64,000 nt of DNA from a virus (Duplodnaviria > Caudoviricetes): positions 41,496-105,495 of IMG/VR virus record IMGVR_UViG_3300021255_003843. One strand, 5' to 3'. Below are positions 19,501 to 58,672 of this stretch, in pieces. Under the pieces are notes generated by a model that saw only the letters and a list, made by a program, of their open reading frames with translations, was not told the DNA's origin and searched no databases. Position numbers and translations under genes: made by a program. Positions within the stretch are counted from its first letter, which is position 1, and the number at the start of each line of letters is the position of its first letter.

Positions 19501-20915
19501 CCAGTGCCGTGCATATTCTGAGCAATATACCTCTTGCCGCTCGGACCAATAGGCACAGCCTTGCCACTCAGCAACTCTTCAATAAAAGCCTGCTGTTTCG
19601 GATCATTTCGATCATAACCATCAGCGCTGACAAAGATGACCTTGTCAGTAAAATCATTATGATGGCCTTCAAGGCCGAGCATTCTCGTGTTCTGCGATTC
19701 ACTGAGCATGACGCGAGAACTTTTTCCGGTATTATTAAACAGATCGCCGACAGTGTATTTAGCAATCTCATATTGCTCAAGCATATGCTTTGTAGATCTA
19801 CCGAGCTTCTCAAAACCTCTGCCAAGAGATCCCGCGTCAGACCAATCTTTGTCAGAACCAATGCCGTCAATGTCACTCATGATGCTAAGCAGACGGCCGG
19901 CAGAAGAAGAGGTCATGCGGCTTACAAGCTGGCGTGCCTCTTTGCTCGTCATATCTTCTAAGCCTTTGAAAATATCAACACGCTGGCTATCTCTGCCAGA
20001 AGCTCGCTTCACGAAAGACGTGAACAGGTTACGCCTGAAATCATCAAGCATCTGCGGAGTGATTTCTCTAATCAGAGACAGTTCACCATTGTCCTCAAGT
20101 TTCGTCATGCCTTTGACGCCGTAAGCAGCTCTCGCGGCTTCATCATTGTCTCTGATTAAATCTCTGAGCTGCGTTCGATTGTAGGCAGACAGGATGCGAG
20201 AACCACTCGGCATTGCCATAGAAGTATAGCCTTTATTCTTATAACTCTCCCTGAAACTTGCAGGAAGCAGGTCTACAGGCTGAGCAGTGGTGTTATTATT
20301 CCTGAGAATATGCCCATACCTTGCGCGCTGATATTCTGCGGTGTTAAAAGCAGGAAGAACGTTCGGGATCAGAGCTTCAACATATTTCTGATAGACATCG
20401 CTGCGAGTAATGCCGCCATGTCCCTTAGACATAAAGAACTCTTCAAAGGGTTTACTCTTCACGAACTCTCCGGCGGCCGTCTTAGCTGTCAAGCCAGCTA
20501 AGCGTGACGCCTGAGCTTTCAGCATAGAGGACAACTCGCCGGTTTCAGCGCTCAACTGCTGTCTGATCGTTTGCGAAAATCCATCAACAATGGATTTCGC
20601 AAACGACGCTCCGAAAGCACCGTCCTGCCCAAACAGAGAGCTCATAGTCCCAAGCTCTTTCAAACCACTCTGCACATCTTGTACAAAATCCTGGTCATCG
20701 GTTCTATTATTTAAGCGCGCCTTCGAGATTTTTTCTTGCAGCATATCTACGATCGAACTTGCGCGCTCAAGGCCTTCGTTTAATGCGCCCGTCATACTCG
20801 GCGCGTCTTCAAACGAGGTGCGAAGTTCGTTAAACTCTTGCTTAAAGTTCCGTAGTTGGCCTACAGCTTTATCAAGGTCTAACACTTCTACACTCAAAGA
20901 TAGTTTGTCAGACAA
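4554..20915 (-). CDS. Giant tape measure protein (5453 aa) with N-terminal two-barrel RNA polymerase domain (candidate virion RNAP)
   Basis: TP901-type TMP segment from about aa 1960 (FDSQMRGIQAIT...SGQVIGTAMQTIFSRM...AGGRQTNVF), coiled-coil C-terminus and position between chaperones and Dit. N-terminal motifs LADGIG (D573), FQGRMGVAGKG, QRSP (R860), SADLDGD (D906). Confidence 0.85.
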   Translation of the reverse strand: MSDKLSLSVEVLDLDKAVGQLRNFKQEFNELRTSFEDAPSMTGALNEGLERASSIVDMLQEKISKARLNNRTDDQDFVQDVQSGLKELGTMSSLFGQDGAFGASFAKSIVDGFSQTIRQQLSAETGELSSMLKAQASRLAGLTAKTAAGEFVKSKPFEEFFMSKGHGGITRSDVYQKYVEALIPNVLPAFNTAEYQRARYGHILRNNNTTAQPVDLLPASFRESYKNKGYTSMAMPSGSRILSAYNRTQLRDLIRDNDEAARAAYGVKGMTKLEDNGELSLIREITPQMLDDFRRNLFTSFVKRASGRDSQRVDIFKGLEDMTSKEARQLVSRMTSSSAGRLLSIMSDIDGIGSDKDWSDAGSLGRGFEKLGRSTKHMLEQYEIAKYTVGDLFNNTGKSSRVMLSESQNTRMLGLEGHHNDFTDKVIFVSADGYDRNDPKQQAFIEELLSGKAVPIGPSGKRYIAQNMHGTGTHAGVRMIEQQAYEAVMKREQEWAQKHGFVTADGKGANFWNDFVDSAYEFKDIESLRKHFDATGKGWSNSWDTHGNFKNRNFAVVDLSQINDENVKQKLADGIGWFMDGILPEKDFQGRMGVAGKGTFHQISGYKTVGEWAKAAGLTDANGRFILPGVGGNIDLTDYHGFVDASTIKNMQAYSNFHTPEEISKGFTAMLQHYGMSSMSTYDDAETRAKGIGTQAMAFMNLSPKMRQQQIDEFDRRINLLSSEAGIREYLFADPDNYLGKQIRSGKLNVNSSAVQSWVQNEIESLTERMSSGEWIDFGTNPSVINQTINKSPLASILGLETINGLSRSDLLKRIRQQYQEKTGTALTISDEDLEGVFALNKGQLVDFARPDAKKVAVQRSPSLFGNFVVGKNYANLARDIYKVFGQTTSGLFASEADLATLGSADLDGDKAKTIYGDLAEAFAEVVAIQEKAIQDFEGSTEPIIKKVDMPAEAAKNVDNPLHRRLFFQTSQDVTNEMGAADASARRAAMFDIYAPENKDLLAAAIQSTPTYDQATAGLKHATSTEATPQMKKALYAGAQWSKLPSRFSRLFNVTGRDNMDVPSPEDIYTATVNGHEIPINMKELRDLGFDKINFRSIFNTTDVGTMRAVSQVASKGVNMERTYALLQALEHMGYGGAGETTQALMKNLRTMKAYDIANPMAPMSAEELDDMQAMIIASKREIEEEAYQKAQGGMIKMEDGSEVSFDSYVQKKMNEYGITAAQGFIERGINQPNISSVFRTDDPAKLLPELFLGQKGGLDFTFTGKDTVLQREAVEKKLQENQAELQRIEIETKQHEEQMNQIKSTLPQEDQARYSPDMTKEEAIEASKRIYAVDGDLAKAEAEAAQVARVYDEVDQLAAGSGIDMQAYRDITAQRQRILDENAQLGKAYTYIQAQEHANTLRSSVDSVKQQFLSGLLKKENELEGKSQAETYYGSRAANVGFVYRQLEDFIKNGEEFDQLPPAMKQEFKELVGGRKDLMQQMNQDFADTTELKAKRLYENLDKTNRKRANKVSALDVQFEEYNNQLQAVEDYRNELQKHLQDREKYPFSPAERKLYEERLAETDTYLAGAREETGKMKEADITNLLDKIKGTVIKDPFQQLKQGANEAKEVVSQLSERLEKVYKDQGMSDEEVAKKMEPYSVLTQQIDENTMFQQQHLKLQDRARVAQVLSTYMADVDKYDIDKEKSFLDFREEQARINRKKQKTGFITEDEAKIVNTTFEDYKRKYDEQNIDVSRYLEGVEAVRDKAQKNVDNARKIADRIRKSDLTQEQKDERLKPLERFNDDYVKREEAAYNERIRQRQKQAELRGEQEIMQAKRAEMQVEQMNRNWQSRTAIDPLSRTYLQRQNMYDQYRSQYNYNDMMVKRMEEQQLAAKNAIDNAATDEDRNLAQAQYDSATASLDHYREALESTKEAMKEFGDTAGNFKTIGNMLAAGLETAATAADKLLQSFGRKMIRQAFTEAKNFVVQFDSQMRGIQAITMKTDEQMQAVKKATVDRAIELKTSVANVASVESDLYRQGLNDQQVEDRTGAIIKFATVTGAKVTDAGKAITTAIQNGLVNSAEEAMDALTALGDSAATTANEIFKGMQKSAAAAKVAGVSYEELTSMLTIGISKTQMSGQVIGTAMQTIFSRMNRVTNQGYVNDETGASVSINDVEKALSGAGIQLRESGGKSFRNSFDVLRDLSKVWGSLNDIQRNNITYTMAGGRQTNVFQTLMEGMGEDGGAELDRLLGLAENSEGTTDSKYAIAVKSITAAMEELKATYDGLVSSMSSNQFFVSSVDMVTGFVGGLKDLTSVAGPVSTAAVVIGGALAALATKLLIVNAASNTFKGAAGLVSTLASVVAIAGVLGVAGAIGSARKNFVDQNDPTLKAQQQIKLADSYSKNRKEGLQPLQKQIDEVQKYGEAWEKAKGNMSASDQQAFIGSLNDLAGTLDGVKKGFESAEEAGKNWKIFVTQGQDHIDKLQRDIDEDTIDMKYAAYEAAYKPDKLRDAYNASQHSVEHKNVGTSLNEKYLVNWASGTLPSDIADATSAITFDYADIMPDSIYDIDLSSEKAYEEFYQKALFSMLGIDVNDPKLNDKFKIYLNTDDGVSFLKKLGNETRARFSENVFTSITHLNPEHQKEFLNSFRNYLIGSKGQGIQKLYTDAYQQQREEEVDTFIGQILGDTDSLTGGDEEARKYLKDQLLKDTAQVLPEDLPDALHESLQRYLNTYKAPQQFQDAAKKANNKYKYFYTDENGKQLFGFDDLDKAEEAYRNYKQSIIQKTSDIIELNYDDFDINRIKTSAGLNAYRNLDQFVNDYSLNDKEYTDVYKNVLSYAMQASSYQDMADMISNVEKQIPNLTGVMTNDAEFAKMIKDLKVGTGKYTLDQFRDYLQGKVLQSSLTDYTASILSGNMSYGQELAAYNAINAGTASADQYDLIAKQWGVNRTNFDANRGLYMTLENSRLNKAREESAHGFNVYMQDLLGGFVKSMDEEEWNKLRKENKGLDFTDRIMELYANSITDESTRQEFQQFTQAAKSAGYRTTIGQDKQFSTTYTGQGYVEENPLAANGNNFYTSRQLRSVASNIVNFDLNADEAKKKYGEYLNEIKSAYPELYEWINTTDAARKKELETEIKIKFKSEGIEEVLKAGTLIKDLVELADQFSRNGIQKHEAQTTFNTELETMRNQAIAGQFANRLASGTIAWANIPSQYQELIKAGSSTYAGKSDKDFFGNEAAAAREYVAYLNSSDYRQALVNTYGSAIHAGLMTQAQAEQLGLTNGKGFQENWFNSVNYNRPNAAFDINQASMATTEEQAQKLVLKAAAQLNSGNFNVQLTEDELAAITSVYGSDVANAITTLNSSKITADRNNALDILKTAWLRLQERSGQVSDGLTNMVIQALSEGHGSAQTTSREALRDKMVQNINDVYDRVVAYNTISQYLNNGTELDAIDENLFSLIGINKNDFINADVTHRNITMTGASTDLNARLLQAQNDAAYSYDYLGAQYGTPILDAAMNKLGLNARYSDYSGAYGLFDRKTLSDLSGLTYENRSLYNPYKAMQSENSQYELANKLYGLISSNQFATPQAFGKYIENNLTPTEQAIWQNNSGSGILSNVYTMSGLIGNREADEYQLAEAEYRKAYNTRNLNRLQALSRITSDQAGWITGLYGTDDEIKTATEGINNWVSTIQQMSDIQEKSYDFAEAQSFIESMKSFSGFDKEVTADNWDDLKLSVGEELIRQNQYLPAFISLLNAANSDVGSDVMSGLGLSFDENGNLVGKNGESLLQGLWYDNWKNLYNTSGVFSNASNRAMIKDVLDNNMSLQQAGEKYLGQLGQSSELLRYLQLIEKQNNGETVDQKELDDLKKKAQESFTDNPFVGYTPQMTTAKTLEEISKLMEAGDGAKDMFAGLEDGIQSQLKSFPGLFDYLATYGSDSEAAAKAAKTLADAIRNEVIGALEEEGKVLSGLSNQLTTIANGNIIDSISQMNQLGQQITNLDEVQQAYKRLTSGQGIQRPEDWNTIKNAFNIGDNVIAQYQSGERSLANDYGYAMEEVEKLRNTTVSTAVDQILVDQLGDAAYETKQPEGFLERIKVMLGMSKPGRTQKSTSDMITGMTDAQVAEVNQRLRASQLGEIVRGENGQWQMQYGGKADAQLTWAQQLARALDTRAALGQGDQSTDYQAMLNSFELSNGNLGDFRSYVDLVQRTNGYKTTAATDLLSNTDFLAAIERGDVDAIRAMLLNGAYGITAPNATRMTTSGVSEYITAALNGDKAKLEELRKNNPTMLDYLTNNVQGFNEAYSAVMSGQQLEKYQIDALKAGSAYQTVYERERNGELKAGSAELAQRLADIDRTKGPTREERRLISAEGSELQRTSQAAQIAQTMYDNQANLTETDWEYLQTKAQLTDEEIKEYKKTPEKLKDLAKDLKGDQQKIRDSLEAAIVGAFPELSSLSDLAKDGNQKIRELVEQLLDMSGLQLTEKDGQITGISEITDNRTAYEILTQGAAANVEPEKEAETYKNRLARLAMQSSDQESLIAAINSDAELLDYLKKDEGARMLGSGFDEIFYNSEHGWTYDQMRNALIQGTGYAPLYRDQLFNNNMEIARQQFGEGFGTSSSLNLNTEQLATVQSYIASHEDFAQWLSDIEGGADLLYAIGNATEDFTYDMTALNGEFSARKIEQYNKFNKASKDIASGVRALSGDIKDSNAYMKSFRQGINAIANNQYYREKYKKGDRSNDVLSAIAQGTGLDKKDLRKGGTPVQQAIKDWETEDKQAIDNYLNTAGTMLTEGLQGTFNEKLQNLGLDGSQIQLLVDKGQVTVDLSQLANEATGAAQAQIQEIMATLSRMGMQATGVVTSDGSNIKLQFQTTDLGKGRSGGGGGGGGGGKSAAQKLLERLKREQALLNHEIKMIQYQETKYENASEIGNQNRMIELENDAQKRLIATLEKHIETTKKQMARTKKNSDDWKSLYDSVLAYEEAIEEANIAIQENTKKIEENEQAILKLHTDLETEVDTEINNRIQRERDMLAGTVSMQDAIIEAIRARYRAEWALIEKDIEKKRAALEEEKNLIDERLQRRKDAEDEAEKYEELSEYKKQLALIEMDSTRTKDAAKLREQIAKIEKEIAWDVAEDEADYQKEQIDSQLQAYDDFVNYGGEDLEAWLEDANNLADEVNQVMQMSQEGMLDWLKANVEEYGLAMDAAQKQMIQGWIDTYEQMIGYTHTYWEEIADILSGKDLFLNYMMASQDYINASEDEQKQMLYDWGEMYDNWIAAQKRDAVYSHSDNGLSGIGTNGSSKKSGSGSGSGNNANTTTDADRINVQDNNGAYVDNSRALHYDTASSGTDKIGSTSKVAQTISATANKLADNVKKLFGFDSGGLVDFTGPAWVDGTKAKPEAFLSADDTALIRSFLDEAKVVRYRSTISNIDSNSFSGNSQNIGELVINITEAQFKDDADFDEVAQRVGQKFVKELSKQGFNTMSYSF

Positions 20916-37982: not shown

Positions 37983-40493
37983 ATGAGTATCATTAATTTA
38001 GTGAAATCCAACACCCTGTCTGTCGAAGAAACCAACGGAACCGGTGTCACTTTGAACACCGAAAACCATGCGTTCGGTCTGACTCCCGCGTTCACTCGCT
38101 TCTCCCCCGATTACTTCCAGATCATCGACACTGGAGATATGGATCGCGGAGAAATCCCCGCAGTTCAGAACTATCTCGACAACATCATCGACAACGGCAT
38201 CCAGGATGGAAGCCGTCGCTACATCCCGGTTTTCGCCGGTTCCAGCAACCAGCGCAATGGTCAGTTTGTAATGTGCTGGGACAAAATCTGGAACGACGTT
38301 ACATCCTGGTGCTGTGCCGGTCTCGATTGCAGGAAATTGCCTGTAGGCAAGCTCGCCAAATACATGGCACTCATGTTCTCAACCGTTCGTTCCTGGGATG
38401 CTGTGTTTCCCGATGGTGGACTCTATGGGGTGTTCAAGTACCCACATCCCAGCACCTGGGGCGTGTTCCCTGACGTTGACATTGACGCTGTTGGCCTGTT
38501 CAATAAGGTCACTCCGTGGGCTGTAAACAAAGAACTGGTCCTCGGTTCTGACAAAGAGACCAACAAGATCACTGATGGTATCGCTCTGTTCGTTCTGGAC
38601 GATACTCAGCTCAACTCTCATCAGAAGAAAGAGATCATCAAGAAAGCAGAAGCTTTCACCGTCAGAGCTCCCATGGTCAAAGGTCTCTTCGTTCCTGTTC
38701 TCAAATCCGCATTGATCAAGTGGTTCGAAGATCATCCCGAAGCGTCGTCTATTCAGAAGGACGCTTGGGGCAACGAACAGAACCTGCTCGACCTCCAGGT
38801 CATCACCTTCAAGTCTGTCTTCAAAGCTTGGAAGTGCATCAAGCAGTGGTCCGAGTACGTTGAAGGCTTCGATACCTACGAGCACCATGTGTGGGTCTGC
38901 ATCGCGGCGCACGGGGAGCGTTGGGCTTCCCTGCCGTATCAGCAGCTCCAAACCCTCAACGCCAACAATGCGCAGGTCGAGGAGCTCGCGCGCACCAGCG
39001 CGAGCTTCCTCATCGACAATGCCAAGATCGGTAAGCTTGGCAAGATCATCGGAGGAAACCTTGGCAAGATCGTCGACATCTTCCCGGATATGCTGCATGA
39101 TCCCTTCGTCCGTGAGCAGCTGCAGCGGAAGTGGATTAGCCGCTGCAAGCAGATGTATGGCGGCCGCATCCTGCATGTCAGCCATAATCTGTTCTGCTCC
39201 AGCGACATCATTGCCGTTATTGAAGGGTTGACTGGTCAGTCCGTTCATGGCGTGCTGCCTGCCAATACCGTGCACACTCAGGCCTTTGGTTACGACAGGA
39301 AGCTGGGCTGCACTCGCTGCCCGCATCTCGACAACGCGTGGGTCACTCCGCGCAACATCAAGGTTCCTGAGGAATATCTTGGCCTGTACATGGGCACCAC
39401 AATCTTCTACAGCTGCAATGACAACACCATGAAGGTTCATCAGATGGACTTTGACGGTGATCACAGCAACGTTACCGACAATCCACTGCTCATCAAGCTG
39501 GCTGAGTACAGCCATGCCAGCTATGGCGATTCCTGCCTGCTGTACGCGGCCATGGACGATGGCACCGCGCCGAAGACGACGTCTGATTATAAGACTGAGT
39601 TCAACGAGCTGTGCCGCAACAGCTTCAAGGCTCCGATCGGCCTGTACGCCAACACCCTGACCAAGGTTTGGGCTCTGCGTAACATGATGGAAAAGACCAG
39701 CGCTCAGGCTAAGAACCTGTGGGTGTGGATCGCCTGCCTGACCAGGAAGGGCAACACCTGCATTGATGAAGCTGGCGGACATGGCAAAGACAGCTCCGTC
39801 GGCATCGCGGAAGACGTGGTCGAACGGTTCCGTCGGACAAAGAAGCCATGGTTCCATGGTTATGCCAAGGGCACGATCAATCCTCAGGGTCAGATCGTCC
39901 GCGCTGACGCCGACTACAAGTACGAGTTCAAGCCGTTCCACACTGTCGACGTCTATAGCGCCATCTGCCGGATGCTTGTGCCGACAGAGGCTGAAACAGT
40001 GATCGATCTGTCCGCTTATTCCATTATTTACTCCAAAGAAGTAGCGGCCAGGATCGTTCGTACCCTTATGAAGGATTCCAATGTCCGCACCCGTCGTGCG
40101 GCCATGAAGGATCTTTCTGATACCTTCGCCGATCTCGTCTGCGCAGCCAACCATGAAGAAGTGCTGATCGCTCAGAGCAGCAGCCTGGCCGCTGTGCCGA
40201 ACTTCACCATGGATAAGGTCGATCTGATCCGCGCCAAGTGCGAGCAGATCGCTCTGAACTGCGGCTACACGCTGGACGACGCTGTCGACATTCTGGTCTT
40301 CAATCTGTTCTACAAGACCAGCGCGACCAGTGCGAAAACCTCCATGATGAAGCGCTGGTTCTTCATCGCCTTCGGTGACATCGTGTTCGAAAACGCGCAG
40401 CGCAACCTGTCCGTTGAACTCACGACCACCGACAACTACGAAGACGCCTCCGAGGAGGAGGATGACGACGCGATCGATCAGTTGGAAGACTGA
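37983..40493 (+). CDS. Single-subunit two-barrel (YonO/RdRP-like) DNA-dependent RNA polymerase, early non-virion
   Basis: ITDGIA, FTVRAPMVKG, TRCPHL (R445), QMDFDGD (D489, nt 39447-39461), IGLYANTLTK. Confidence 0.85.
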   Translation: MSIINLVKSNTLSVEETNGTGVTLNTENHAFGLTPAFTRFSPDYFQIIDTGDMDRGEIPAVQNYLDNIIDNGIQDGSRRYIPVFAGSSNQRNGQFVMCWDKIWNDVTSWCCAGLDCRKLPVGKLAKYMALMFSTVRSWDAVFPDGGLYGVFKYPHPSTWGVFPDVDIDAVGLFNKVTPWAVNKELVLGSDKETNKITDGIALFVLDDTQLNSHQKKEIIKKAEAFTVRAPMVKGLFVPVLKSALIKWFEDHPEASSIQKDAWGNEQNLLDLQVITFKSVFKAWKCIKQWSEYVEGFDTYEHHVWVCIAAHGERWASLPYQQLQTLNANNAQVEELARTSASFLIDNAKIGKLGKIIGGNLGKIVDIFPDMLHDPFVREQLQRKWISRCKQMYGGRILHVSHNLFCSSDIIAVIEGLTGQSVHGVLPANTVHTQAFGYDRKLGCTRCPHLDNAWVTPRNIKVPEEYLGLYMGTTIFYSCNDNTMKVHQMDFDGDHSNVTDNPLLIKLAEYSHASYGDSCLLYAAMDDGTAPKTTSDYKTEFNELCRNSFKAPIGLYANTLTKVWALRNMMEKTSAQAKNLWVWIACLTRKGNTCIDEAGGHGKDSSVGIAEDVVERFRRTKKPWFHGYAKGTINPQGQIVRADADYKYEFKPFHTVDVYSAICRMLVPTEAETVIDLSAYSIIYSKEVAARIVRTLMKDSNVRTRRAAMKDLSDTFADLVCAANHEEVLIAQSSSLAAVPNFTMDKVDLIRAKCEQIALNCGYTLDDAVDILVFNLFYKTSATSAKTSMMKRWFFIAFGDIVFENAQRNLSVELTTTDNYEDASEEEDDDAIDQLED

Positions 40494-48422: not shown

Positions 48423-48495
48423 GGCCTCTTAGCTCAGCCGGTAGAGCAGCTGACTGTTAATCAGCCGGTCGCGCGTTCAAATCGCGCAGAGGCCT
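48423..48495 (+). tRNA. tRNA-Asn (GTT)
   Basis: GGCCTCT/AGAGGCC acceptor, GCTGA-CTGTTAA-TCAGC anticodon arm, GTTCAAAT T-loop; no encoded CCA. Confidence 0.88.
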
Positions 48496-48667
48496 CGTCG
48501 GGACGATCTGCCGGAAAATGGCGCAGATCACGCGCAACGCTGTTGGAACAGAAGGCTTGGGTTGCGCAACTTGTCAGCAAAAGAAATATCTATAGTTTTT
48601 AGCCATTTCCATGCCTTGCTTACAGCTGACAGCCCTGCCGCTGGGGTCATAATACAGCGGATTTTAT

Positions 48668-48860
48668 GGAGACTTAGCTCAACTGGGAGAGCGCCAGCGT
48701 TGCTCAGCGTAGGTCAGATGTATAGTCAGGAACTGACCAAAGCGTTTCGGCTCGGCAATATAACTCACCCCGTGATATTAAACGTTGCCATATTTTGTTG
48801 AGGACAGAATAAGCGGATGCACGCAAGAGGTCGGCGATTCGAACCCGCCAGTCTCCACCA
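48668..48860 (+). ncRNA. tRNA-like RNA (193 nt) with ~117-nt structured insert in the anticodon arm
   Basis: GGAGACT/AGTCTCC-ACCA acceptor, AGCTCAACTGGGAGAGC D-arm, TTCGAAC T-loop; Ala-like TGCACGCAAGAGGTC on the 3' side. Confidence 0.7.
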
Positions 48861-48959
48861 GGTGCTGCCTTACAGGGGGCAGTATGCCGGAGTCATGACC
48901 GGCACTTCTGTACGTCGTTTTGGCACCGGTTTGGGCGCTATAATCTAACTGGTGCACGT

Positions 48960-49033
48960 GGGGATTTAGCTCATCAGGTCAGAGCAGCGCTCTTATAAAG
49001 CGCAGGTGCATGGTTCAAGTCCATGAATCCCTA
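48960..49033 (+). tRNA. tRNA-Ile (TAT)
   Basis: GGGGATT/AATCCCT acceptor, GCGCT-CTTATAA-AGCGC anticodon arm, GGTTCAAGTCC. Confidence 0.85.
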
Positions 49034-49106
49034 TTTGCCCGTGACCATGGAAACACGGGCAAGACGCATCGCCTCTTTAAAATATAGCCGGCGTGTCCGG
49101 CTATAT

Positions 49107-49178
49107 AGGGGAGTAGCCAAACGGAAAGGCACGGGACTTTGACTCCCGCATGTGAAGGTTCAACTCCTTCCTCCCCTG
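49107..49178 (+). tRNA. tRNA-Gln (TTG)
   Basis: AGGGGAG/CTCCCCT acceptor, CGGGA-CTTTGAC-TCCCG anticodon arm, GGTTCAACTCC. Confidence 0.88.
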
Positions 49179-49199
49179 CTACGAAATCAAGGAGCTTAT

Positions 49200-50591: not shown

Positions 50592-50792
50592 TTTTAACGC
50601 TATAAACAGCCCGCTCATTAAAAGCGGGCTGTTTATATAGAACACCTCGGAAAGGAGGGAGTATATGGTTCGGGTGAGATCGCCCAGCGCATATTCATAA
50701 AACCTTTGACCCAGTTCCATATCTTGTTTGCAGATGCAAACACCAATAAAACCCAATTTAAAACAAATTTCAAAACAAAAAGGAGAAACACT

Positions 50793-51398
50793 ATGATTTC
50801 TATCACCCTGCTCACCAATGCTGGCCGTCAGACTACTCCCGTGTCCGAAGATACCTCTATCCGCGAAGTGCTGGATTCCAAGCACATCAACTATGCCGCC
50901 TCCGTCGTTCAGCTGGATGGCTGCGCGCTGCGCCCCGGCGACATGGATAAGACCTTCGCCGAAATGGGCATCAAAGACAGCTGCTATCTGACAGCCGTCG
51001 TTAAGGCGGATAATGCTGCCAAGGTCACCGTGGTTGGCGAAGCCGCCGTTGTCACCTCCGCGCTGAAGCTGGCAGACATCAAGACCGCCAAGAAGTATCG
51101 CCCGGAAGCCTTGGAGCTGAAGAAGGACAAGGATGTCATCTTCGCTGTTGACACCACTGATCGTTCCGCCGGCTCCATCAATATCCACGGCGCAACCTTC
51201 TCCAACGCCACGGACGCTGATGGCTATGCCACCATCACCATGACCGTGGATCGCGGCGAGGATGTTGAGAAGACTCTGCTCGATAAGATCGGCATGGGCC
51301 TGCTGCTGTTGAATCAGGTCGAGGAAGCCTTCGGCGAACAGCTGGCGTCCATCCAGGCTGATCAGGCGAAGATCAAGTCTCTGATCGACATCAAGTAA
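50793..51398 (+). CDS. Ubiquitin-like (beta-grasp) domain fused to a C-terminal helical domain
   Basis: ATG 50793 after AAAGGAG; VSEDTSIREVL...LDG..L...DKTFAEMGIKDSCYLTAVVKADNA matches the Ub fold pattern; directly upstream of E2/JAB/E1. Confidence 0.75.
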   Translation: MISITLLTNAGRQTTPVSEDTSIREVLDSKHINYAASVVQLDGCALRPGDMDKTFAEMGIKDSCYLTAVVKADNAAKVTVVGEAAVVTSALKLADIKTAKKYRPEALELKKDKDVIFAVDTTDRSAGSINIHGATFSNATDADGYATITMTVDRGEDVEKTLLDKIGMGLLLLNQVEEAFGEQLASIQADQAKIKSLIDIK

Positions 51399-51411
51399 TT
51401 CCTGACACGAC

Positions 51412-51447
51412 AAGGCGGCGTCCCCATTCAAGGGACGCCGCCTTTTT
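51412..51447 (+). terminator. Internal terminator/attenuator after the Ubl gene
   Basis: AAGGCGGCGTCCC/GGGACGCCGCCTT plus TTT. Confidence 0.7.
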
Positions 51448-51480
51448 CGGAAGCCTCTTAAATGAAAGGACATTATTTCC

Positions 51481-52890
51481 ATGTTCGGAAATACGTTTAA
51501 TGAAATCAAATATTTTGGCGACGCGTTCGCCGAACAACACGAGAAGTTGAGCAGGATCACGCAGCGCGGAAATTATCAGAATGATAAGACGATGCTGGCG
51601 TTTGCACGAGCCCTTCTATTTAACAGGCTCCCGGAAGGCGAAACCTTCTCCATCAATATCTACCCCATCGACAGCCCGATCTATCAGGACATGATGGACC
51701 ATCCAAAGGAGAAGGACGAGCTGCACAATCAGCTGTTCGTTTTCTACAAGGAAGACGATACAATCGACGAAGCGCAGGTCAACGCGTTCTACGCCAAGTA
51801 TCCTACGTTCCATATCATGCAGCAGCATATGGACTTCTTCTCATCGTGCGCAAAAGCCTGGTGCTACAACGATACTGAGAACATTTCCGCCATCCTGTTT
51901 CTGCAGGAAGCGAATGTGCGCAAGATGCACCTGCTGTTCTCCATGCTCTCCGCCTACTTCAAGCCTCTGTGCCCGGTCATGACCGGCTATGAGAAGACAG
52001 ATTTCTGCCCGTCCATGACCAAGCGCGCTTCTCAGCCCTTTGAGGAGTGCATGGCTCACCTGGCGCATGAGTATGGCATCGATCAGGAGTATATGGCGTT
52101 CATGATCCGGAACTACACCCGGAACAACGTACGTGTCGTTATCGATCAGGCTGAACGCACTCTGGCTGAACGGCGGGACACGCTGCAGCGTAATATCGAA
52201 GAGTACACTAATCTATACCGCGCTTTCAAGCAGGCTTCTGATAACGTTGAACTGCTGAAATCTCGCCCCGTCGAAGAAGATACAGAGCTCGTAGATTTCT
52301 TCAAGGCACATAAGAATATCAGGCTGTTCGACGTCAGCGGCGATATGCTCAAGTTCTATGTACTGGGTACTCTTGAGTGGTTTGATCTTGAATTCTATCA
52401 TCGCGCGGCGAGGAACGATAATGCCATCTACCGCATCAACGCGCCACGGGCTTTCTCTGAGCTGGAAGACCGCAAACTGTTGATGGACGCCATCTTCTCC
52501 GATGATCCGATTTTCAAAATCCGCATGTGCTCATCCTATGGTCTGTCTATCACCGGCGATGTGGACGTCTGGGCTAACTATAACTATCCCGCGGATATAC
52601 TTAAGCAGTATATTCCGAATCCGCATATTCAGTATCACCGCTGCCTCGGCGACCATCGTGATCCGATCCGCCGCGCGCTGAGAGACAATAACATGCCGCT
52701 CGCCATCGAGCAGTGTATCGCCTCCGCTCAGTCCGTCAATATTGCGGAGCGCAGCGTCACCTTCGATCCGTTCATGAAGAACGTATTCAGCTCCACAAAC
52801 AAGATTCTGGTGGATATGAAAGGCAAAGAATATACGCCCGTCGAGGCTCTGAAATATCTGAAAAAGAAAGCGCAGGCTGAGAGCAAATGA
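51481..52890 (+). CDS. Prokaryotic E2-like conjugating-enzyme domain protein with long N-terminal/coiled-coil region
   Basis: C-terminal PNPHIQYHRCLG (H...C-x-G) motif; operon context with Ubl, JAB and E1. Confidence 0.65.
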   Translation: MFGNTFNEIKYFGDAFAEQHEKLSRITQRGNYQNDKTMLAFARALLFNRLPEGETFSINIYPIDSPIYQDMMDHPKEKDELHNQLFVFYKEDDTIDEAQVNAFYAKYPTFHIMQQHMDFFSSCAKAWCYNDTENISAILFLQEANVRKMHLLFSMLSAYFKPLCPVMTGYEKTDFCPSMTKRASQPFEECMAHLAHEYGIDQEYMAFMIRNYTRNNVRVVIDQAERTLAERRDTLQRNIEEYTNLYRAFKQASDNVELLKSRPVEEDTELVDFFKAHKNIRLFDVSGDMLKFYVLGTLEWFDLEFYHRAARNDNAIYRINAPRAFSELEDRKLLMDAIFSDDPIFKIRMCSSYGLSITGDVDVWANYNYPADILKQYIPNPHIQYHRCLGDHRDPIRRALRDNNMPLAIEQCIASAQSVNIAERSVTFDPFMKNVFSSTNKILVDMKGKEYTPVEALKYLKKKAQAESK

Positions 52891-53735
52891 AAACGATAAA
52901 GATCACGGAAGCCGATAAGGCCGCCATCAGGGAAGAGTTTGAGAAAACTCTGGCTGATTACCGGCTTCCGAACGGCGAGTTCAAGTTTACAAAATCCTTC
53001 GCCGCCCGCAAAGCGGCGAAGGATGAGCGCATCACGCTCTATTATACGCCGGACGCATATCTGAAGATCACCGCTCTGGTGAACAAGTTCGATACAGAGG
53101 TAGGCTGGCATGGTCTCGTCCGTAAGGTAGACGATAAGACTTACCTGATCTATGACATCCTGGTCTATAAGCAGGAGGTCACCGGCGCAACCGTCAACAC
53201 GGATCAGGATGAGTATGTCGAATTCCTGAAGAATCTCACCGACGAGCAGGCCGAGCATATGTTCTATCACGGCCACAGCCATGTCAATATGGGTGTGTTC
53301 GCCTCCTCTGTGGATATGGATCACCGCGCACGCCTGATCCAGTGTGCTGATGAAAACGGTTTCTGGATTTTTCAAATTTGGAACAAACGTAAGGAAGTTT
53401 CGACCGTACTCTATGACCTCGCCAATAATGTTCTGTATGACTCGGATGACATCGATATGACCGTCCTGTTCGCGGACGGCTCCGACGTTACGGAGTTCAC
53501 TGCGAACGCGGATAAGCTCGTCGTAAAAAAAAATACCTTGCCCGCTCAGGTCAAGATCGACAGCAAGTGGTCGGGCGGCTCTTACAATACCGCGCAAAAA
53601 GAGCCCGAAAAGTCCAAAAAGGCAGAAAAAGCTAAGGATAAGAAGAAGTACGAGGACTATGACGACGACCTGATTGACGATGGCACTAAGCCTTATGGCT
53701 ATGGCTATGGTTACGGGTATGGCTACAATTACTAA
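52887..53735 (+). CDS. JAB/MPN metallopeptidase (deubiquitinase-like)
   Basis: EVGWHG and HGHSHVNMGVFASSVD (HxH-x7-S-x2-D); GY-repeat tail. Confidence 0.88.
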   Translation: MKTIKITEADKAAIREEFEKTLADYRLPNGEFKFTKSFAARKAAKDERITLYYTPDAYLKITALVNKFDTEVGWHGLVRKVDDKTYLIYDILVYKQEVTGATVNTDQDEYVEFLKNLTDEQAEHMFYHGHSHVNMGVFASSVDMDHRARLIQCADENGFWIFQIWNKRKEVSTVLYDLANNVLYDSDDIDMTVLFADGSDVTEFTANADKLVVKKNTLPAQVKIDSKWSGGSYNTAQKEPEKSKKAEKAKDKKKYEDYDDDLIDDGTKPYGYGYGYGYGYNY

Positions 53736-53746
53736 GGAGAGAAGAC

Positions 53747-54418
53747 ATGGATCTTTCTAAATCCTATGAATTCTTCCAGCCTTCCATGTGCGACGGCCGC
53801 ATCCACATCATCGGATGCGGCTCCGTCGGCTCTACAGTGGCGGAACTGCTGGTTCGCTACGGCCTGACCAATATCACGCTCTATGATTTTGATCATGTCG
53901 AGGCTCACAACATCGCTAATCAGATGTTCGATAGTACCGACATCGGCAAGGAAAAGGTCACAGCCGTGGCCGATCATCTGATCGCTATCAATCCGGAGCT
54001 GCGGGACACTCTGCGCATCGCCGATAAGGGCTATACAAATCAGAAGCTCTCCGGCTATGTATTCCTGTGTGTCGACAATATCGACCTTCGACGCAAGATC
54101 GCCGAGGAAAACAGGAACAATGTATTTATCAAGGCGATGTTCGATTTCAGGACCCGCCTGACCGACGCCCAGCACTACGCTGCGGATTGGTCTGACGAAA
54201 AGCACAAGGAAGCCTTCATCAATTCTATGCAATTCTCGCACGAGGAGGCGTCCAAGGAGACGCCTATGTCCGCCTGCCATGTCACCCTCAGTGTGGCGGC
54301 GACAGTGCGCCTGATCTGCACCTACGGGGTCGTCAACTTCATTGACTTCCTCAAGAAAGGGACCCTCAAGAAGACCGTACTCATCAACACAGAGCTCTGG
54401 GACTTGATGGGTATCTAA
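53747..54418 (+). CDS. ThiF/E1-like activating enzyme
   Basis: IIGCGSVGS, YDFDHVEAHNIANQ, GKEKV, CVDN, late Cys in SAC. Confidence 0.92.
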   Translation: MDLSKSYEFFQPSMCDGRIHIIGCGSVGSTVAELLVRYGLTNITLYDFDHVEAHNIANQMFDSTDIGKEKVTAVADHLIAINPELRDTLRIADKGYTNQKLSGYVFLCVDNIDLRRKIAEENRNNVFIKAMFDFRTRLTDAQHYAADWSDEKHKEAFINSMQFSHEEASKETPMSACHVTLSVAATVRLICTYGVVNFIDFLKKGTLKKTVLINTELWDLMGI

Positions 54419-54435
54419 AATAACAGGAGAGGCTT

Positions 54436-55626
54436 ATGTTTGGATATTTCTACTTCACCAGGCGCGCTATCGCAAAGAAAAGTGGGCAAACAAAGTTCAT
54501 AAGCCTCTTGACCTGTGAACCACCGGAACCAGGCGACGCTGACAGCTTCATCTACGGCACCGCTTCCACGAAAACTATCAAGTGTGCAGAGCTTCCTGCC
54601 GAATTCGCGGGTCTGTTCGATGCCGTCGAGGCCGAAAAGGCCCTCGACGGCGTGCTTGCCTACGCCGAAGAGCACCTGACCGGTGATCCGTCGACCTGGT
54701 ACAAGCATTACACGATCCCGAAGCGCTCCGGCGAGCCTCGTCCTATCGACGAGCCGCTGCCGGAGCTGTCTGCTTATCTGTACAATCTGATGGGGATCCT
54801 GCGCAAGAAGTTTTTTGCCATGTACCACGACTCCGCTTATGCGTATGTCAAGTACCGCAATACGAAGCAGTGCCTGGAACAGCATCAGCGCAACACCAAT
54901 TTCGTCAAGATGGATTTCAAAAACTTCTTCGGCAGCACAACGCTGTATGAAGCTATGACCATCCTGCCGAAAATCTACCCATTCAATTTCTTCTGCGAAA
55001 CTGAAGCCAGAAAGGCAAAGCTGCGCAAGGCGCTGTCTTACACTTTTCTGAACGGTGGTCTGCCGCAGGGCACCTGCATATCGCCTATGCTTACTAATCT
55101 TCTGATGATCCCGTTTGATTATGAGATAAATCACAGAGGGATGGGTTTGAACATGACCTATACTAGATACGCAGACGATCTACTTTTCTCAAGCAAGTCG
55201 ATGCGCATATGGAATCGGGAACAAGCCAATAATATGCGTAAGTGTATGGTTAAGGAAGTATATCGGATCCTGCGTCAGTGTGGTTACCCATACCGTCTGA
55301 ATGCGAAAAAGACCAAAGTCTGCTCCCGCCTTGGCAAGAACTGGAATCTCGGCCTCATGCTGAATCAGTACGATGAAATCACCATCGGGCACGAGAACAT
55401 CCGCAAACTCAAGGCAGATCTGTGGAACCTGGTGCAATCGGTTTCTAAATCAAAACCGATTGCAAAAGAGTGGCTTCAAAAGTTTGAGGGCCGCTATCAT
55501 TATTACAGGCTCATCCAGCCGACGCGGGTAGACCAGCTCGCTTCAGCAGCCGTCAGCAAAGGCTATCGCTATTACTGGATGGATATAAACGCAATATTCA
55601 GATTAGCGCGGCTGAGAGCCCAATAA
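54436..55626 (+). CDS. Retron-type reverse transcriptase
   Basis: IPKRSGEPRPIDEP, HDSAYAY...CLEQH (region X), DFKNFF, LPQGTCISP, YTRYADD, LNAKKT, NLGL (VTG position); no maturase or endonuclease extension. Confidence 0.88.
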   Translation: MFGYFYFTRRAIAKKSGQTKFISLLTCEPPEPGDADSFIYGTASTKTIKCAELPAEFAGLFDAVEAEKALDGVLAYAEEHLTGDPSTWYKHYTIPKRSGEPRPIDEPLPELSAYLYNLMGILRKKFFAMYHDSAYAYVKYRNTKQCLEQHQRNTNFVKMDFKNFFGSTTLYEAMTILPKIYPFNFFCETEARKAKLRKALSYTFLNGGLPQGTCISPMLTNLLMIPFDYEINHRGMGLNMTYTRYADDLLFSSKSMRIWNREQANNMRKCMVKEVYRILRQCGYPYRLNAKKTKVCSRLGKNWNLGLMLNQYDEITIGHENIRKLKADLWNLVQSVSKSKPIAKEWLQKFEGRYHYYRLIQPTRVDQLASAAVSKGYRYYWMDINAIFRLARLRAQ

Positions 55627-55632
55627 CCATTG

Positions 55633-55848
55633 AGTAAACGCCGGGGGCGTCATGCACATGTAAGTATACAGGAATAAGCATTGCGGCTTATAAGGAACTT
55701 ACGCGCTTGATGTCATCAGGCGAACGTCATTACTTCAGAGACTCCTCCTCCTTTGCTAGTACGCCAGGAGGCAGCTAAAGCTGCCTCCTGGCTCCCTAGC
55801 AAAGTCGTCGGTAACTTGTTAGAAAAAGATGACGTCCCCGGTTTTACT
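55633..55848 (+). ncRNA. Retron msr-msd ncRNA located 3' of the RT
   Basis: a1/a2 arms 55633-55653 and 55829-55848 pair over 20 bp (2 GU, 1 bulge); unpaired G55654 opposite G55828; short msr stems at 55675-55690 and 55704-55722; msd hairpin 55751-55804. Confidence 0.82.
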
Positions 55849-55918
55849 ATTTTCCTACGTTCCGGCCAATGTTTTTCTGTCGGAGCGCATTGTTTTACTT
55901 TCAGAAAGGGGCGGTTTC

Positions 55919-58672
55919 ACGAGTACGAAAAGCTATTTAAGCAGTCAAATCCGCCTGATTTCACTCACTACCTACGACCTCCTCACCGAAGAGGAACGCA
56001 CTGTTTACTTCAAGATCGCCGAGCTCAAGAATAAGCTGAACGATCGTACCGGAGAGCGCGAGCAGATCCTTGAACAGAAGAAGATTCTGCAGCAGCAGCT
56101 CTCACAGCTCATTGCCTCCCATGAACATGTACCTCGGTCTGTCAACCTGGATGCCGTGCTCGATCCTACGTTACCGGTGCGCCCGCCGGGGGTTTCCTGG
56201 AAAACTCTCCGGCCTACCAGACGCATCGCCGAGTTCGTGTCCGAAGAAAGCAGGCTCCTTCAGCTGGAGCCTAATGCCATCTCCTTTGACAAGATCATCG
56301 TCAAGTGGAAATCGCTGGACATTCTGCGTCAAATCATACTGAACGGCTTCACCATGCCGGTCATGAATGGGGCGGGAGAGATCGTTGTCAAGCGCTACCG
56401 CTTCCACACAGCCAGCGCGGGACAATTGCGCACCGATAAGGTGCAGTTTATCGCGGAAGACGCCTGGTCCCGCATCGCGCCAGGTATTATGTGCGGTCTG
56501 ACCTGGAACATCATCAACCAAAAAGGCGGCATCAATACCTCAAAGCTGATGGCTTATCTGTCCCTGCCAAGCTCGGCAACCGATCCCTTTGACCTCGACA
56601 TCGATCGCTGTATCGTCGTGGATGATTTTGAAGCGCCTGTTACAGGCATGATGGATTACATTAAGCCGGATTACACGATAGAACGTGGCGTTCGCACAGT
56701 TACAATCAATCATACCGATGGCAGCGGCATGATGCTTCCTTCCGTGTCTCGGTGGAACTTCATGATTCGTGGACCTTGGCTCAAAGGATTGCTCTGTTCG
56801 TTTGACTTCCTGCGCTTCTGCTCTGTCAATCACTGCGAGCCGAAGCTTACAGATGTCTGGGGACAGGAGCATGATTTGATGGCGGAAGATATTCAGGTTA
56901 TCTTCACCAAGAGCCAGCTGAAGCTGTGGAAATACTACGACAGCTGGGATCAGTACAAAACCTGCTTCAAGGAGTGTGGCTGTCACTTCGGTCGCACGAA
57001 TATGGAAGAGGCTTACATCCAAAACTCGGAAACCAACTATCAATTTCTTCAAACACTGGTCGATTTTCCAGACGAAAATCTCAGAGAATTTATCAGGCCA
57101 ACTTATGATCGCATCAAAACCCTGTCAACTGACCGGGAGCACATGCTGCATGCGTTGGGCGCAGATGATTTCTCTGAAATTCCGTACCGAAACGCGCTGC
57201 AAATCTATCCCGAGCTTCTGCGCGAAGCGTATTCGCGTGACTCACTGAAGGCAATCAAGAAACGCTGGACGCTGGACGCCAGGTCTGGCAAGATCCGCTG
57301 TAAAAATAAGCGTCTCTTTGCCATCCCGGATTTCTATGCCGCGTGCCAGTTCTGGTTCCTTCATGAGCAGGAACCCGTGGGCCTTTTGCAGAACGGCGAG
57401 GTGTTCGCAAGGCCTTTTATGCAAACGGATGAGGTTGATGTATTAAGGAGTCCACATCTGTATTTTGAACATGCACTCCGAAAAGTCAACCATGATCCAA
57501 ACATCGCCAGCTGGTTTTATACCAATGGAATTTACACCAGCTGCCACGATCTGATCAGCAGAATCCTCCAATTCGATGTAGACGGGGACCAGCTAAACGT
57601 CCTGTCAGATCAGATCATTTTGAAAGTAGCCAGGCAGAACCTGGAAAAGTACGACATCGTCCCACTATTCTACGACGCCACGAAAGCTCCTCCGGAACAG
57701 GTTACCTCAGAAGCTTTGTTTCACGGCGTCAAGCGCGCGCATGACTACAGCGGCATCGGTCAGATCTCCAACTCGCTTACGCGGCTTTGGAACAGACCTA
57801 ACCCTGATTTTACGTCTGCTGCGCTGCTGTGCTATTACAATAACCTGACGATTGACGGCGCAAAAACCGGGTCCGTCAATTCCTACGACAAATACCCGGA
57901 AATCTCTGCCCGCATTAACAAAGCGATCGGCGGCCCTAATGGGAGAATGCCATACTGGTTTCAGTTCTCCAAGAACGGCCGGCGCGCAGACACGGCTACG
58001 AAAAAGAAGAAGTTGTGCGCAAAGCCTAATGATTCCACGATGAATCGGCTTTGCGCTTTATTTGATGATATAGGAATAATCAATATGAATGCGGCAGGCG
58101 TTCCGCCATTCAACGGCAATATGTTTCTGGAGAATCCGGTCATGGATTATAACGAACAGGCTGTTGAACTTTTTAATACGCTGGACGCCAGTAATCTCCA
58201 GTCTCGTATCGAAGGCGCTTCCATGATGGATATTATGGAAAAGTACAACGCCATCGGCTACGAGGCTTTGAAGGAACTGATCACAGACAAGCTGACCGAC
58301 CTGTGCGGCAGCCTGGAAAACGCTTATCCGTCCATTGCCTACTATCTTTTCATAGGCGAAGGCGCGGACAAAGCTTCCCATAAGCAAATGTTCTGGCGCG
58401 TGTTCGGCGACATCGCGCTGCGCAACCTGAAGTTCAACCTGATGACCTCTGTCTCGTGTCCTCACTGCGGCATGAAACTGCCGGTATGGGAGGAGGGGCA
58501 TGTCTGCTCTCCTGTAGCCCACGGTTTCTTCACCTGTGAAGATTGTGGGCAGTGGTGTCCTCGCACCAACAGCAGGCAGCGCCGCTGTGCCGCATGTCAG
58601 AAGGAGTATCGTAGGGCTTCGCTCGTCGCGCACAATCAGAAGTATCGCGCCATCAAAAAGGAGACGGCCTGA
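55919..58672 (+). CDS. YonO-like single-subunit RNA polymerase with C-terminal Zn ribbons (candidate late RNAP); start uncertain
   Basis: SAGQLR, HTDGSG, FMIRGPWLKG, LRSPHL, QFDVDGD (nt 57575-57589), IGQISNSLT, IDGAKT; CxxC pairs at the C-terminus. RBS AGAAAGGGG sits 7 nt before an in-frame ACG at 55919. Confidence 0.88.
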   Translation, partial: TSTKSYLSSQIRLISLTTYDLLTEEERTVYFKIAELKNKLNDRTGEREQILEQKKILQQQLSQLIASHEHVPRSVNLDAVLDPTLPVRPPGVSWKTLRPTRRIAEFVSEESRLLQLEPNAISFDKIIVKWKSLDILRQIILNGFTMPVMNGAGEIVVKRYRFHTASAGQLRTDKVQFIAEDAWSRIAPGIMCGLTWNIINQKGGINTSKLMAYLSLPSSATDPFDLDIDRCIVVDDFEAPVTGMMDYIKPDYTIERGVRTVTINHTDGSGMMLPSVSRWNFMIRGPWLKGLLCSFDFLRFCSVNHCEPKLTDVWGQEHDLMAEDIQVIFTKSQLKLWKYYDSWDQYKTCFKECGCHFGRTNMEEAYIQNSETNYQFLQTLVDFPDENLREFIRPTYDRIKTLSTDREHMLHALGADDFSEIPYRNALQIYPELLREAYSRDSLKAIKKRWTLDARSGKIRCKNKRLFAIPDFYAACQFWFLHEQEPVGLLQNGEVFARPFMQTDEVDVLRSPHLYFEHALRKVNHDPNIASWFYTNGIYTSCHDLISRILQFDVDGDQLNVLSDQIILKVARQNLEKYDIVPLFYDATKAPPEQVTSEALFHGVKRAHDYSGIGQISNSLTRLWNRPNPDFTSAALLCYYNNLTIDGAKTGSVNSYDKYPEISARINKAIGGPNGRMPYWFQFSKNGRRADTATKKKKLCAKPNDSTMNRLCALFDDIGIINMNAAGVPPFNGNMFLENPVMDYNEQAVELFNTLDASNLQSRIEGASMMDIMEKYNAIGYEALKELITDKLTDLCGSLENAYPSIAYYLFIGEGADKASHKQMFWRVFGDIALRNLKFNLMTSVSCPHCGMKLPVWEEGHVCSPVAHGFFTCEDCGQWCPRTNSRQRRCAACQKEYRRASLVAHNQKYRAIKKETA

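Follow-up and report, generated by a model that had tools for sequence, protein, structure and literature searches.

A phage-borne module that joins a retron-clade reverse transcriptase to the genes of a predicted ubiquitin-like conjugation pathway

We describe a gene module in which a predicted retron-clade reverse transcriptase (RT) and a structured RNA are joined to the genes of a predicted ubiquitin-like protein (Ubl) conjugation pathway, and which is found again in roughly a hundred related phage contigs. It occupies positions 50793–55847 of a 64,000-nucleotide stretch of phage DNA (the window, to which coordinates refer unless another source is named) that comprises bases 41,496–105,495 of the 105,495-base IMG/VR virus record IMGVR_UViG_3300021255_003843. 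In order, and with all genes on the + strand, the block consists of gene A, a Ubl domain fused to a second domain called p130; gene B, whose product is an E2-like candidate; a JAB/JAMM metallopeptidase gene (JAB); a minimal E1 gene; the RT gene; and a 211-nt RNA (Table 1). An earlier note on this DNA had described five co-oriented and tightly spaced genes with intact catalytic motifs, and this description stands: B and JAB overlap by 4 nt, the JAB-E1 and E1-RT gaps are 11 and 17 nt, and the JAMM, E1 and RT YADD residues are all present, those of the JAMM peptidase and E1 being conserved in homologues as well. The 82-nt gap between genes A and B, which was absent from that note, holds a terminator- or attenuator-like hairpin.

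Conservation of the module

The protein collection contains more than 1,300 homologues of the RT, and the index of the assembly collection lists one RT variant in 211 blocks. Linkage was counted in fetched loci whose RT belongs to this clade and is preceded by 5 kb or more of sequence; these loci are not all independent and collapse to 83 representatives. B, JAB and E1 all occur in 74 of the 75 viral or ENA loci, in the same order in all 74, and in 29 of the 31 loci binned into metagenome-assembled genomes (MAGs), with the order B-JAB-E1-RT in 28. Ubl is likewise found in 73 viral/ENA and 28 MAG-binned loci, and p130 in 72 and 28, respectively. RT identity among the module loci goes down to about 33%, and at least two phage backbones carry the module, one with RNA polymerase and Sak genes downstream and the other with Metallophos, RtcB and ligase genes in that position. 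The comparison set consisted of RT-like genes that score 160 bits or less against the clade model (n = 32), and beside these other retron-like RTs neither B nor JAB was found (0/32). Given the kit in 74/75 and 29/31 loci on the one hand and in 0/32 on the other, the adjacency of RT and kit is not due to chance, and their linkage is that of a conserved module. A test for chance adjacency had been proposed in the earlier note, and close and distant RT homologues alike nearly always keep the ubiquitin-type genes. Some subgroups also carry accessory genes (X269, between E1 and RT, p221 and p219), none of which is in the window.

It could still be imagined that a stand-alone retron and a Ubl kit are two independent systems that travel together in a variable phage region, and we regard this as the least probable of the explanations considered here. 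Consistent with it, the hairpin and T-run set gene A apart from the other genes, many relatives have 200–600 nt of non-coding DNA between E1 and RT, and at loci L054, L088 and L102 the RT has no adjacent complete kit. However, these are only 3 of the 106 loci with sufficient flanks, the order is fixed and co-occurrence near-complete across deep RT divergence and different backbones, and other retron RTs never have the kit.

In a literature search, no publication connecting a Ubl/E1/JAB set with a retron or RT came to light, which agrees with the earlier statement that no described retron type is known to have a ubiquitination partner; Mestre et al. (2020, PMC7736814) never mention ThiF or ubiquitin, and Iyer et al. 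(2006) never mention reverse transcriptase.

The reverse transcriptase and its downstream RNA

A retron consists of an RT, an msr-msd non-coding RNA (ncRNA) and an effector, and 13 types have been distinguished (Mestre et al. 2020). Three libraries agree in placing the module RT, as judged from its sequence, in the retron RT clade: in PADLOC the top-scoring models are without exception those of retron RTs (RT_II-A, 3e-44), in NCBIfam retron_St85_RT scores highest (158 bits, where the curated cut-off is 235), and the closest solved structures are the retron Ec83, Ec78 and Ec86 RTs. These matches bear out the earlier identification of an RT with a YADD motif. The score under the cut-off, the separation achieved by the family's own hidden Markov model (250–640 bits for members, at most 160 for other retron-like RTs) and the lack of a known effector alongside suggest that it falls outside the described retron RT families and types; Pfam and PADLOC scans of the block found no known retron effector family beside the RT.

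The earlier note also placed an ncRNA after the RT, and both folding and covariation support it. The predicted folding energy is -97 kcal/mol (z = -8.5 relative to shuffles), and in an alignment of the window with four relatives whose RTs are 45–51% identical, the a1/a2 stem has compensatory changes in six columns, 89% of cells pair compared with 35–51% when partners are slid, and 24 pairs are altered on both sides, a number reached by 0 of 500 shuffles. The RNA has the structure that is expected of retrons, with a1/a2 repeats, small hairpins and an msd-type hairpin, and the G at 55654 next to a1, a putative branch point, is kept in 5/5 aligned sequences. Because a T-run follows the 3′ arm, the RNA probably ends the operon transcript too. 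The listed ATG of the next gene, encoding an RNA polymerase, sits at 55829 within the 3′ arm; in relatives this gene begins past the RNA, and the first 25 residues of the window version are not conserved, so the overlap may be an artefact of open reading frame calling. Directly after the RNA, positions 55846–55858 (TTTT...TATTTTCCTAC) are conserved in four related loci, and the TATTTTCCTAC motif after a2 has no repeat elsewhere in the window.

The downstream location of the RNA is a trait of the family. Among 14 distant relatives, the 280 nt 3′ of the RT are structured in 12 (z < -2.5; median z -4.9), with RT coding controls at a median z of -0.6, and the gaps 5′ of the RT are unstructured (median z -0.9, 0/14 below -2.5). 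The usual upstream ncRNA position therefore finds no support in this RT family. A covariance model of the RNA (R1) matched only its own five training sequences among 51 sources, so the distant relatives have diverged RNAs; a search with a short 3′ motif was not specific. The large subgroup typified by locus L005, which is the commonest, has three paralogous RNA-like units of about 300 nt, one 5′ and two 3′ of the RT (Table 1).

The ubiquitin-like protein

The earlier note took the first gene to encode a Ubl; the Ubl fold is clear, but gene A is not a plain Ubl, being a 201-aa Ubl-p130 fusion. In its AlphaFold model (pLDDT 93.6) residues 1–75 are clearly predicted to form a beta-grasp, for which Foldseek gave 83 PDB matches to SUMO and ubiquitin with E ≤ 0.001, and VIA gave Z values of 8–9.4 with SUMO, MoaD and the Ubl of a bacterial E1-E2-Ubl complex (8tyz_B). 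There is also a weak resemblance to SAMP2 and MoaD.

Most relatives have separate genes for p130 and Ubl, which precede B in that order, where the window has the fusion; the free Ubl gene is 75 aa long and terminates at a ...VVKADNA-type motif, and the separate p130 gene is about 130 aa. Among the 65 distinct free Ubls, D/S-N-A forms the exact C-terminus of 32 and a further 26 have D-[NGS]-[AG] with 1–4 extra residues after it, and the same motif stands at the junction in 10 of the 12 distinct Ubl-p130 fusions. Ala predominates over Gly as the terminal residue. Such a pattern is expected if a peptidase trims the tag to leave a small residue at its end. There is precedent for both parts of this idea, as BubAB, a Ubl-E2 fusion, is cleaved by its own JAB after the terminal Gly (PMC11601596) and Cap2 substrates have a C-terminal Gly or Ala (PMC10097602).

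In the same model p130 is a sheet with a 40-residue helix and lacks the E2 order of secondary-structure elements. Its E177 is invariant, and S89, P104, G127 and G133 are nearly so. It matched no family and had no usable Atlas match, its fold having been searched only jointly with Ubl, whose matches filled the lists.

The peptidase and the E1

The earlier assignments of JAB and E1 are both well founded. The JAMM residues E72 and HSHx7SxxD recur in 90% or more of 70 JAB homologues, and profile matches include PADLOC JAB (E 0.004) and Rpn11 (E 0.037). The E1 matches Pfam ThiF over residues 16–202 (4e-22) and the Cap2-type E1-E2 models of PADLOC (down to 5e-20), with PDB matches to MoeB (3.5e-9), UBA5, MccB and Cap2, and its GCGSVGS loop, D47/D49, NQ, D110, R115 and Cys176 are conserved in 59 homologues.

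Such E1 matches raise the question of sulfur-carrier chemistry, in which the E1 would thiocarboxylate Ubl, in the manner of ThiS, MoaD or TtuB, and Ubl would then give up its sulfur for modification of msDNA (the reverse-transcribed multicopy single-stranded DNA of retrons), tRNA or a cofactor. ThiF and MoeB are the top matches of the E1, Ubl has the weak likeness to SAMP2 and MoaD, and the module has three phage tRNA genes 1.6 kb to its 5′ side. However, the module contains no sulfurtransferase, rhodanese or cysteine desulfurase, JAB and an E2-like protein with conserved Cys and His are always present, and Ubl ends in Ala rather than Gly-Gly; we consider this chemistry very improbable.

The JAB tail (53580–53732; YGYGYGYGYGYNY) is disordered and runs from Lys-rich through acidic to Gly/Tyr-repeat sequence, an order of composition that is the same in most homologues without conservation of sequence. 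Tails of this kind are often seen in nucleic-acid binders, and the tail counts in favour of a more unusual arrangement in which Ubl would be joined to msDNA or its RNA as a protein-DNA conjugate, or msDNA would guide the E2-like protein to its targets; so do the strict coupling of RT and Ubl where no protein effector can be recognised and the ability of eukaryotic DELTEX ligases to attach ubiquitin to the ends of nucleic acids. Against it, family scans recognised no nucleic-acid-binding domain in B, p130 or E1. We judge this arrangement distinctly improbable, and a covalent or guided partnership of reverse-transcribed DNA and a Ubl tag, taken broadly, improbable.

Protein B, an E2-like candidate

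The product of gene B was called an E2 in the earlier note. Its fold matches, topology and motif agree with that name, but no sequence profile supports the label. The model (pLDDT 91.8) has an N-terminal alpha/beta domain (1–200), a long helix of about 60 residues (200–261) and a C-terminal domain (266–469). The last of these runs in the order helix, four strands with an insertion, N380-P-H382 loop, C388 and three helices, and Cys388 lies eight residues past Asn380 in the motif NPHxxxxxCLG, which was compared with the HPN-to-Cys spacing of classical E2s. This order of elements and the motif spacing give the predicted layout of a UBC domain. C350, N380, H382, C388, G390 and C412 are invariant in B homologues, and taken together the catalytic residues of JAB and E1 and the His and Cys of B show conservation over 59–70 homologues.

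Using VIA, residues 264–446 matched the RWD domains of Knl1 (4nf9, Z 6.5, 89 aligned) and Ltn1 (8aaf, Z 6.2); such domains, which are relatives of the UBC fold, were the only non-coiled-coil matches for B in an exhaustive structural search. The language-model neighbours of the C-terminal domain carry Prok-E2_D (score 0.88), which is a lead only. A Pfam scan of 21 B homologues found no family in common, the B profile gave only coiled-coil noise against PDB sequences, and a shape search in the Atlas returned only unnamed viral relatives. On this basis of fold and motif without profile support, we rate the C-terminal domain of B as E2-like with reasonable, not full, confidence, that is, as probable only.

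Comparison with known systems

Comparison with described systems is informative in understanding the module. Among retrons, its RT is closest to types II-A and I-A (Ec83, Ec78, Ec86) and, like theirs, stands in close linkage with accessory genes; its RNA is bounded by terminal inverted repeats and shows a conserved G at the base of the stem as well as small hairpins and one long one. Unlike retrons, its RT falls under the NCBIfam retron cut-off, the RNA lies 3′ of the RT, some relatives have several RNA units, the partner is a set of Ubl, E1, E2-like and JAB genes, and the carriers are large phages.

The Ubl part most resembles Bil (BilABCD, ISG15-like) in having the order Ubl, E2 (in the module an E2-like candidate), JAB, E1 and the same four predicted activities, as well as a beta-grasp Ubl with a small C-terminal residue and a JAB/JAMM peptidase. 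Bil acts in phage conflict, where it tags a phage structural (tail) protein (as summarised in PMC11601596). The module differs in that its E1 is a single ThiF domain of 223 aa, its E2-like protein is 469 aa long with extra domains and matches no E2 profile, its Ubl has Asn-Ala in place of a terminal Gly, it always includes an RT and ncRNA, and it is encoded by a phage, whereas Bil is encoded by the host. Type I Bub (6E.1) is similar in having the Ubl at the N-terminus of a fusion, from which the operon's JAB frees it in Bub, and a fused partner domain of about 130 aa. There, however, the partner is an E2 and JAB is fused to E1, whereas the module has separate JAB and E1 genes and its modelled p130 lacks the E2 element order; the block has no DUF6527 match in Pfam, and Bub has no RT.

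Type II CBASS (cyclic oligonucleotide-based antiphage signalling system; Cap2/Cap3) likewise attaches an E1/E2 and JAB set to a nucleotide-polymerising enzyme, its conjugated C-terminus can be Ala, and the module E1 matches the Cap2-type models of PADLOC. In contrast, the module has no CD-NTase match (PADLOC and Pfam scans of the block), has its E1 and E2-like proteins in separate genes and has a separate beta-grasp Ubl. PRTRC/Prok-E2_D systems share a ThiF-type E1 and a small E2-like protein carried on mobile elements, but the module E1 scores only 30.8 bits against PRTRC_ThiF (TIGR03736), for which the cut-off is 144.75.

How the module may work

The reading that we favour, tentatively and at somewhat less than an even chance, is that the module represents a new retron-like type and that its RT-msDNA acts together with a minimal pathway of Ubl conjugation in conflicts between phage and host or between phages. 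Gene A would be produced as a Ubl-p130 precursor, which the JAMM peptidase would cleave after ...KADNA75, exposing the C-terminal Ala. The E1, probably a homodimer, would then adenylate this end and may hold Ubl on Cys176 before transfer to Cys388 in the UBC-like domain of B, with targets perhaps chosen by the N-terminal domain and coiled coil of B, possibly together with p130. The RT would copy the hairpin of the RNA 3′ of its own gene into msDNA. By analogy with known retron effectors, RT-msDNA could be the sensing or licensing part and Ubl conjugation the output, and by analogy with the tail-protein tagging of Bil the purpose could be conflict with competing phages or host defences by protein tagging. 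The earlier note had proposed that RT-msDNA may gate conjugation, or else that the enzymes may act on the RT/msDNA complex.

Several observations weigh against this proposal. The E1 is a single domain and lacks the separate Cys domain of Bil E1s. No E2 profile fits B, which has no Pfam or PDB sequence match; Foldseek found nothing in the PDB for its model at E ≤ 0.001, and although hhalign of B with one Prok-E2_D protein aligned the Cys motifs, it did so at a probability of 0.2% and without statistical support. Finally, the module has no classical toxic effector, and the analogy with retron toxin-antitoxin action is loose.

The last point also enters into the strongest competitor, an unlikely one, in which control runs in the reverse direction as in type II CBASS. 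There the Ubl pathway would prime or switch the RT by conjugation to the RT, p130 or a partner, and msDNA would be the real output, for example as a decoy or inhibitor of host nucleases or as a substrate for recombination or replication. The CBASS E1-E2 and JAB regulate a nucleotide-polymerising enzyme and are not themselves the effector (PMC10097602), the module is without an evident toxin, RNA polymerase, Sak-type, primase-helicase and exonuclease genes lie directly downstream in the window, and many relatives have several ncRNA-like units around the RT. On the other hand, a separate Ubl and a large multi-domain E2-like protein suggest a choice among outside targets, and the downstream genes differ between backbones, so that the tie to replication genes is not conserved. 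A search for RT fusions of 694–2000 aa found none, whether to Ubl-pathway proteins or otherwise, which is weak evidence in the same direction.

The phage and its surroundings

The earlier note called the cassette phage-encoded, and its source supports this: the IMG/VR record is 95% complete by CheckV, represents a gut phage of about 105 kb and has terminase, portal and capsid genes. Within the window are genes for terminase, portal, major head, single-stranded DNA-binding protein, Sak-type annealing protein, primase-helicase and exonuclease. The structural region includes one open reading frame of 5,453 aa (4554–20915, - strand). The block is flanked by a region of tRNA and small genes and by a second RNA polymerase gene, and on its 3′ side RNA polymerase, Sak-type annealing protein, primase-helicase and exonuclease genes follow. 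Just 5′ of gene A, a perfect 15-bp hairpin (50601–50637) closes the preceding run of small genes, and the Ubl gene thus opens a new unit.

In blastn against GenBank phages the only match was one of 135 nt, and tblastn with the RT found one unannotated faecal contig (32% identity). The MAG bins that bear the module are mostly Clostridia. The cultured isolate Clostridiales Family XIII bacterium PM5-7 (L121) has a diverged copy of the whole module on a 428-kb contig (G001:C1), where the RT (64147–65130) and a terminase homologue (102522–104276) are 38 kb apart, which suggests an integrated prophage. The window's phage genome also encodes, outside the window, a tyrosine recombinase/integrase (PF00589, 68.5 bits; L169, G000:C1:25560-26087). 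This recombinase and the apparent prophage in PM5-7 make a temperate lifestyle plausible, and the phage is probably a temperate phage of Clostridia.

Table 1. Coordinates of the module parts, neighbouring features and L005 RNA-like units
Feature	Position	Strand	Basis or remarks
Gene A (Ubl-p130)	50793–51398	+	open reading frame
Ubl domain, aa 1–75 of gene A	50793–51017	+	predicted beta-grasp fold; ends ...VVKADNA
p130 domain, aa 76–201 of gene A, and stop	51018–51398	+	predicted beta sheet and long C-terminal helix
Perfect 13-bp hairpin, then T-run, terminator- or attenuator-like	51412–51444	+	inverted repeat inside gene A-B gap
Protein B, 469 aa	51481–52890	+	C-terminal UBC/RWD-like domain predicted
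JAB/JAMM metallopeptidase, 282 aa	52887–53735	+	E72 and HSHx7SxxD
Minimal E1-like adenylating enzyme, 223 aa	53747–54418	+	single ThiF domain, Cys176
Retron-clade RT, 396 aa, YADD, N-terminal extension of ~85 aa	54436–55626	+	profile matches
Retron-like ncRNA, 211 nt	55637–55847	+	fold, covariation, covariance model 158.9 bits
ncRNA a1 arm	55637–55653	+	17-bp terminal stem with a2
ncRNA candidate branching G	55654	+	directly 3′ of a1
ncRNA conserved hairpin, 8 bp, UUGAUGUCAUCA core	55704–55722	+	invariant in 5 aligned sequences
ncRNA long msd-type hairpin	55751–55804	+	structure kept, sequence varies
ncRNA a2 arm, then T-run	55829–55845	+	pairs with a1
YonO/RdRP-like single-subunit RNA polymerase	55829–58672		phrog_8308, E 1.5e-174
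YonO/RdRP-like single-subunit RNA polymerase, paralogue of the 55829–58672 gene	37983–40493		phrog_8308, E 4.4e-58
Phage tRNA genes Asn-GTT, Ile-TAT, Gln-TTG (n = 3)	48423–49179		1.6 kb upstream of module
L005 RNA-like units (L005 coordinates)	7640–7990, 9165–9450, 9445–9770		terminal pairing, GCCAAAGGC hairpin, 3′ AUGUAGAUU motif

Significance

Retrons and bacterial Ubl pathways, both recently understood as arms of the conflict between phages and bacteria, had up to now been described apart from each other and for the most part in hosts. Here the two are combined in one widespread module, which is borne by phages and common in those of gut Clostridia. The module brings with it new protein families, namely the E2-like protein of about 470 aa, p130 and the minimal E1. 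If Ubl were indeed placed on msDNA, or the E2-like protein directed by it, this would be nucleic-acid-programmed protein tagging in phages. The apparent prophage copy in the cultured isolate PM5-7 makes the module open to experiment. It would add to the retrons a type partnered by a protein-conjugation cascade, and would be the first example in which a reverse transcriptase is coupled to a Ubl pathway.

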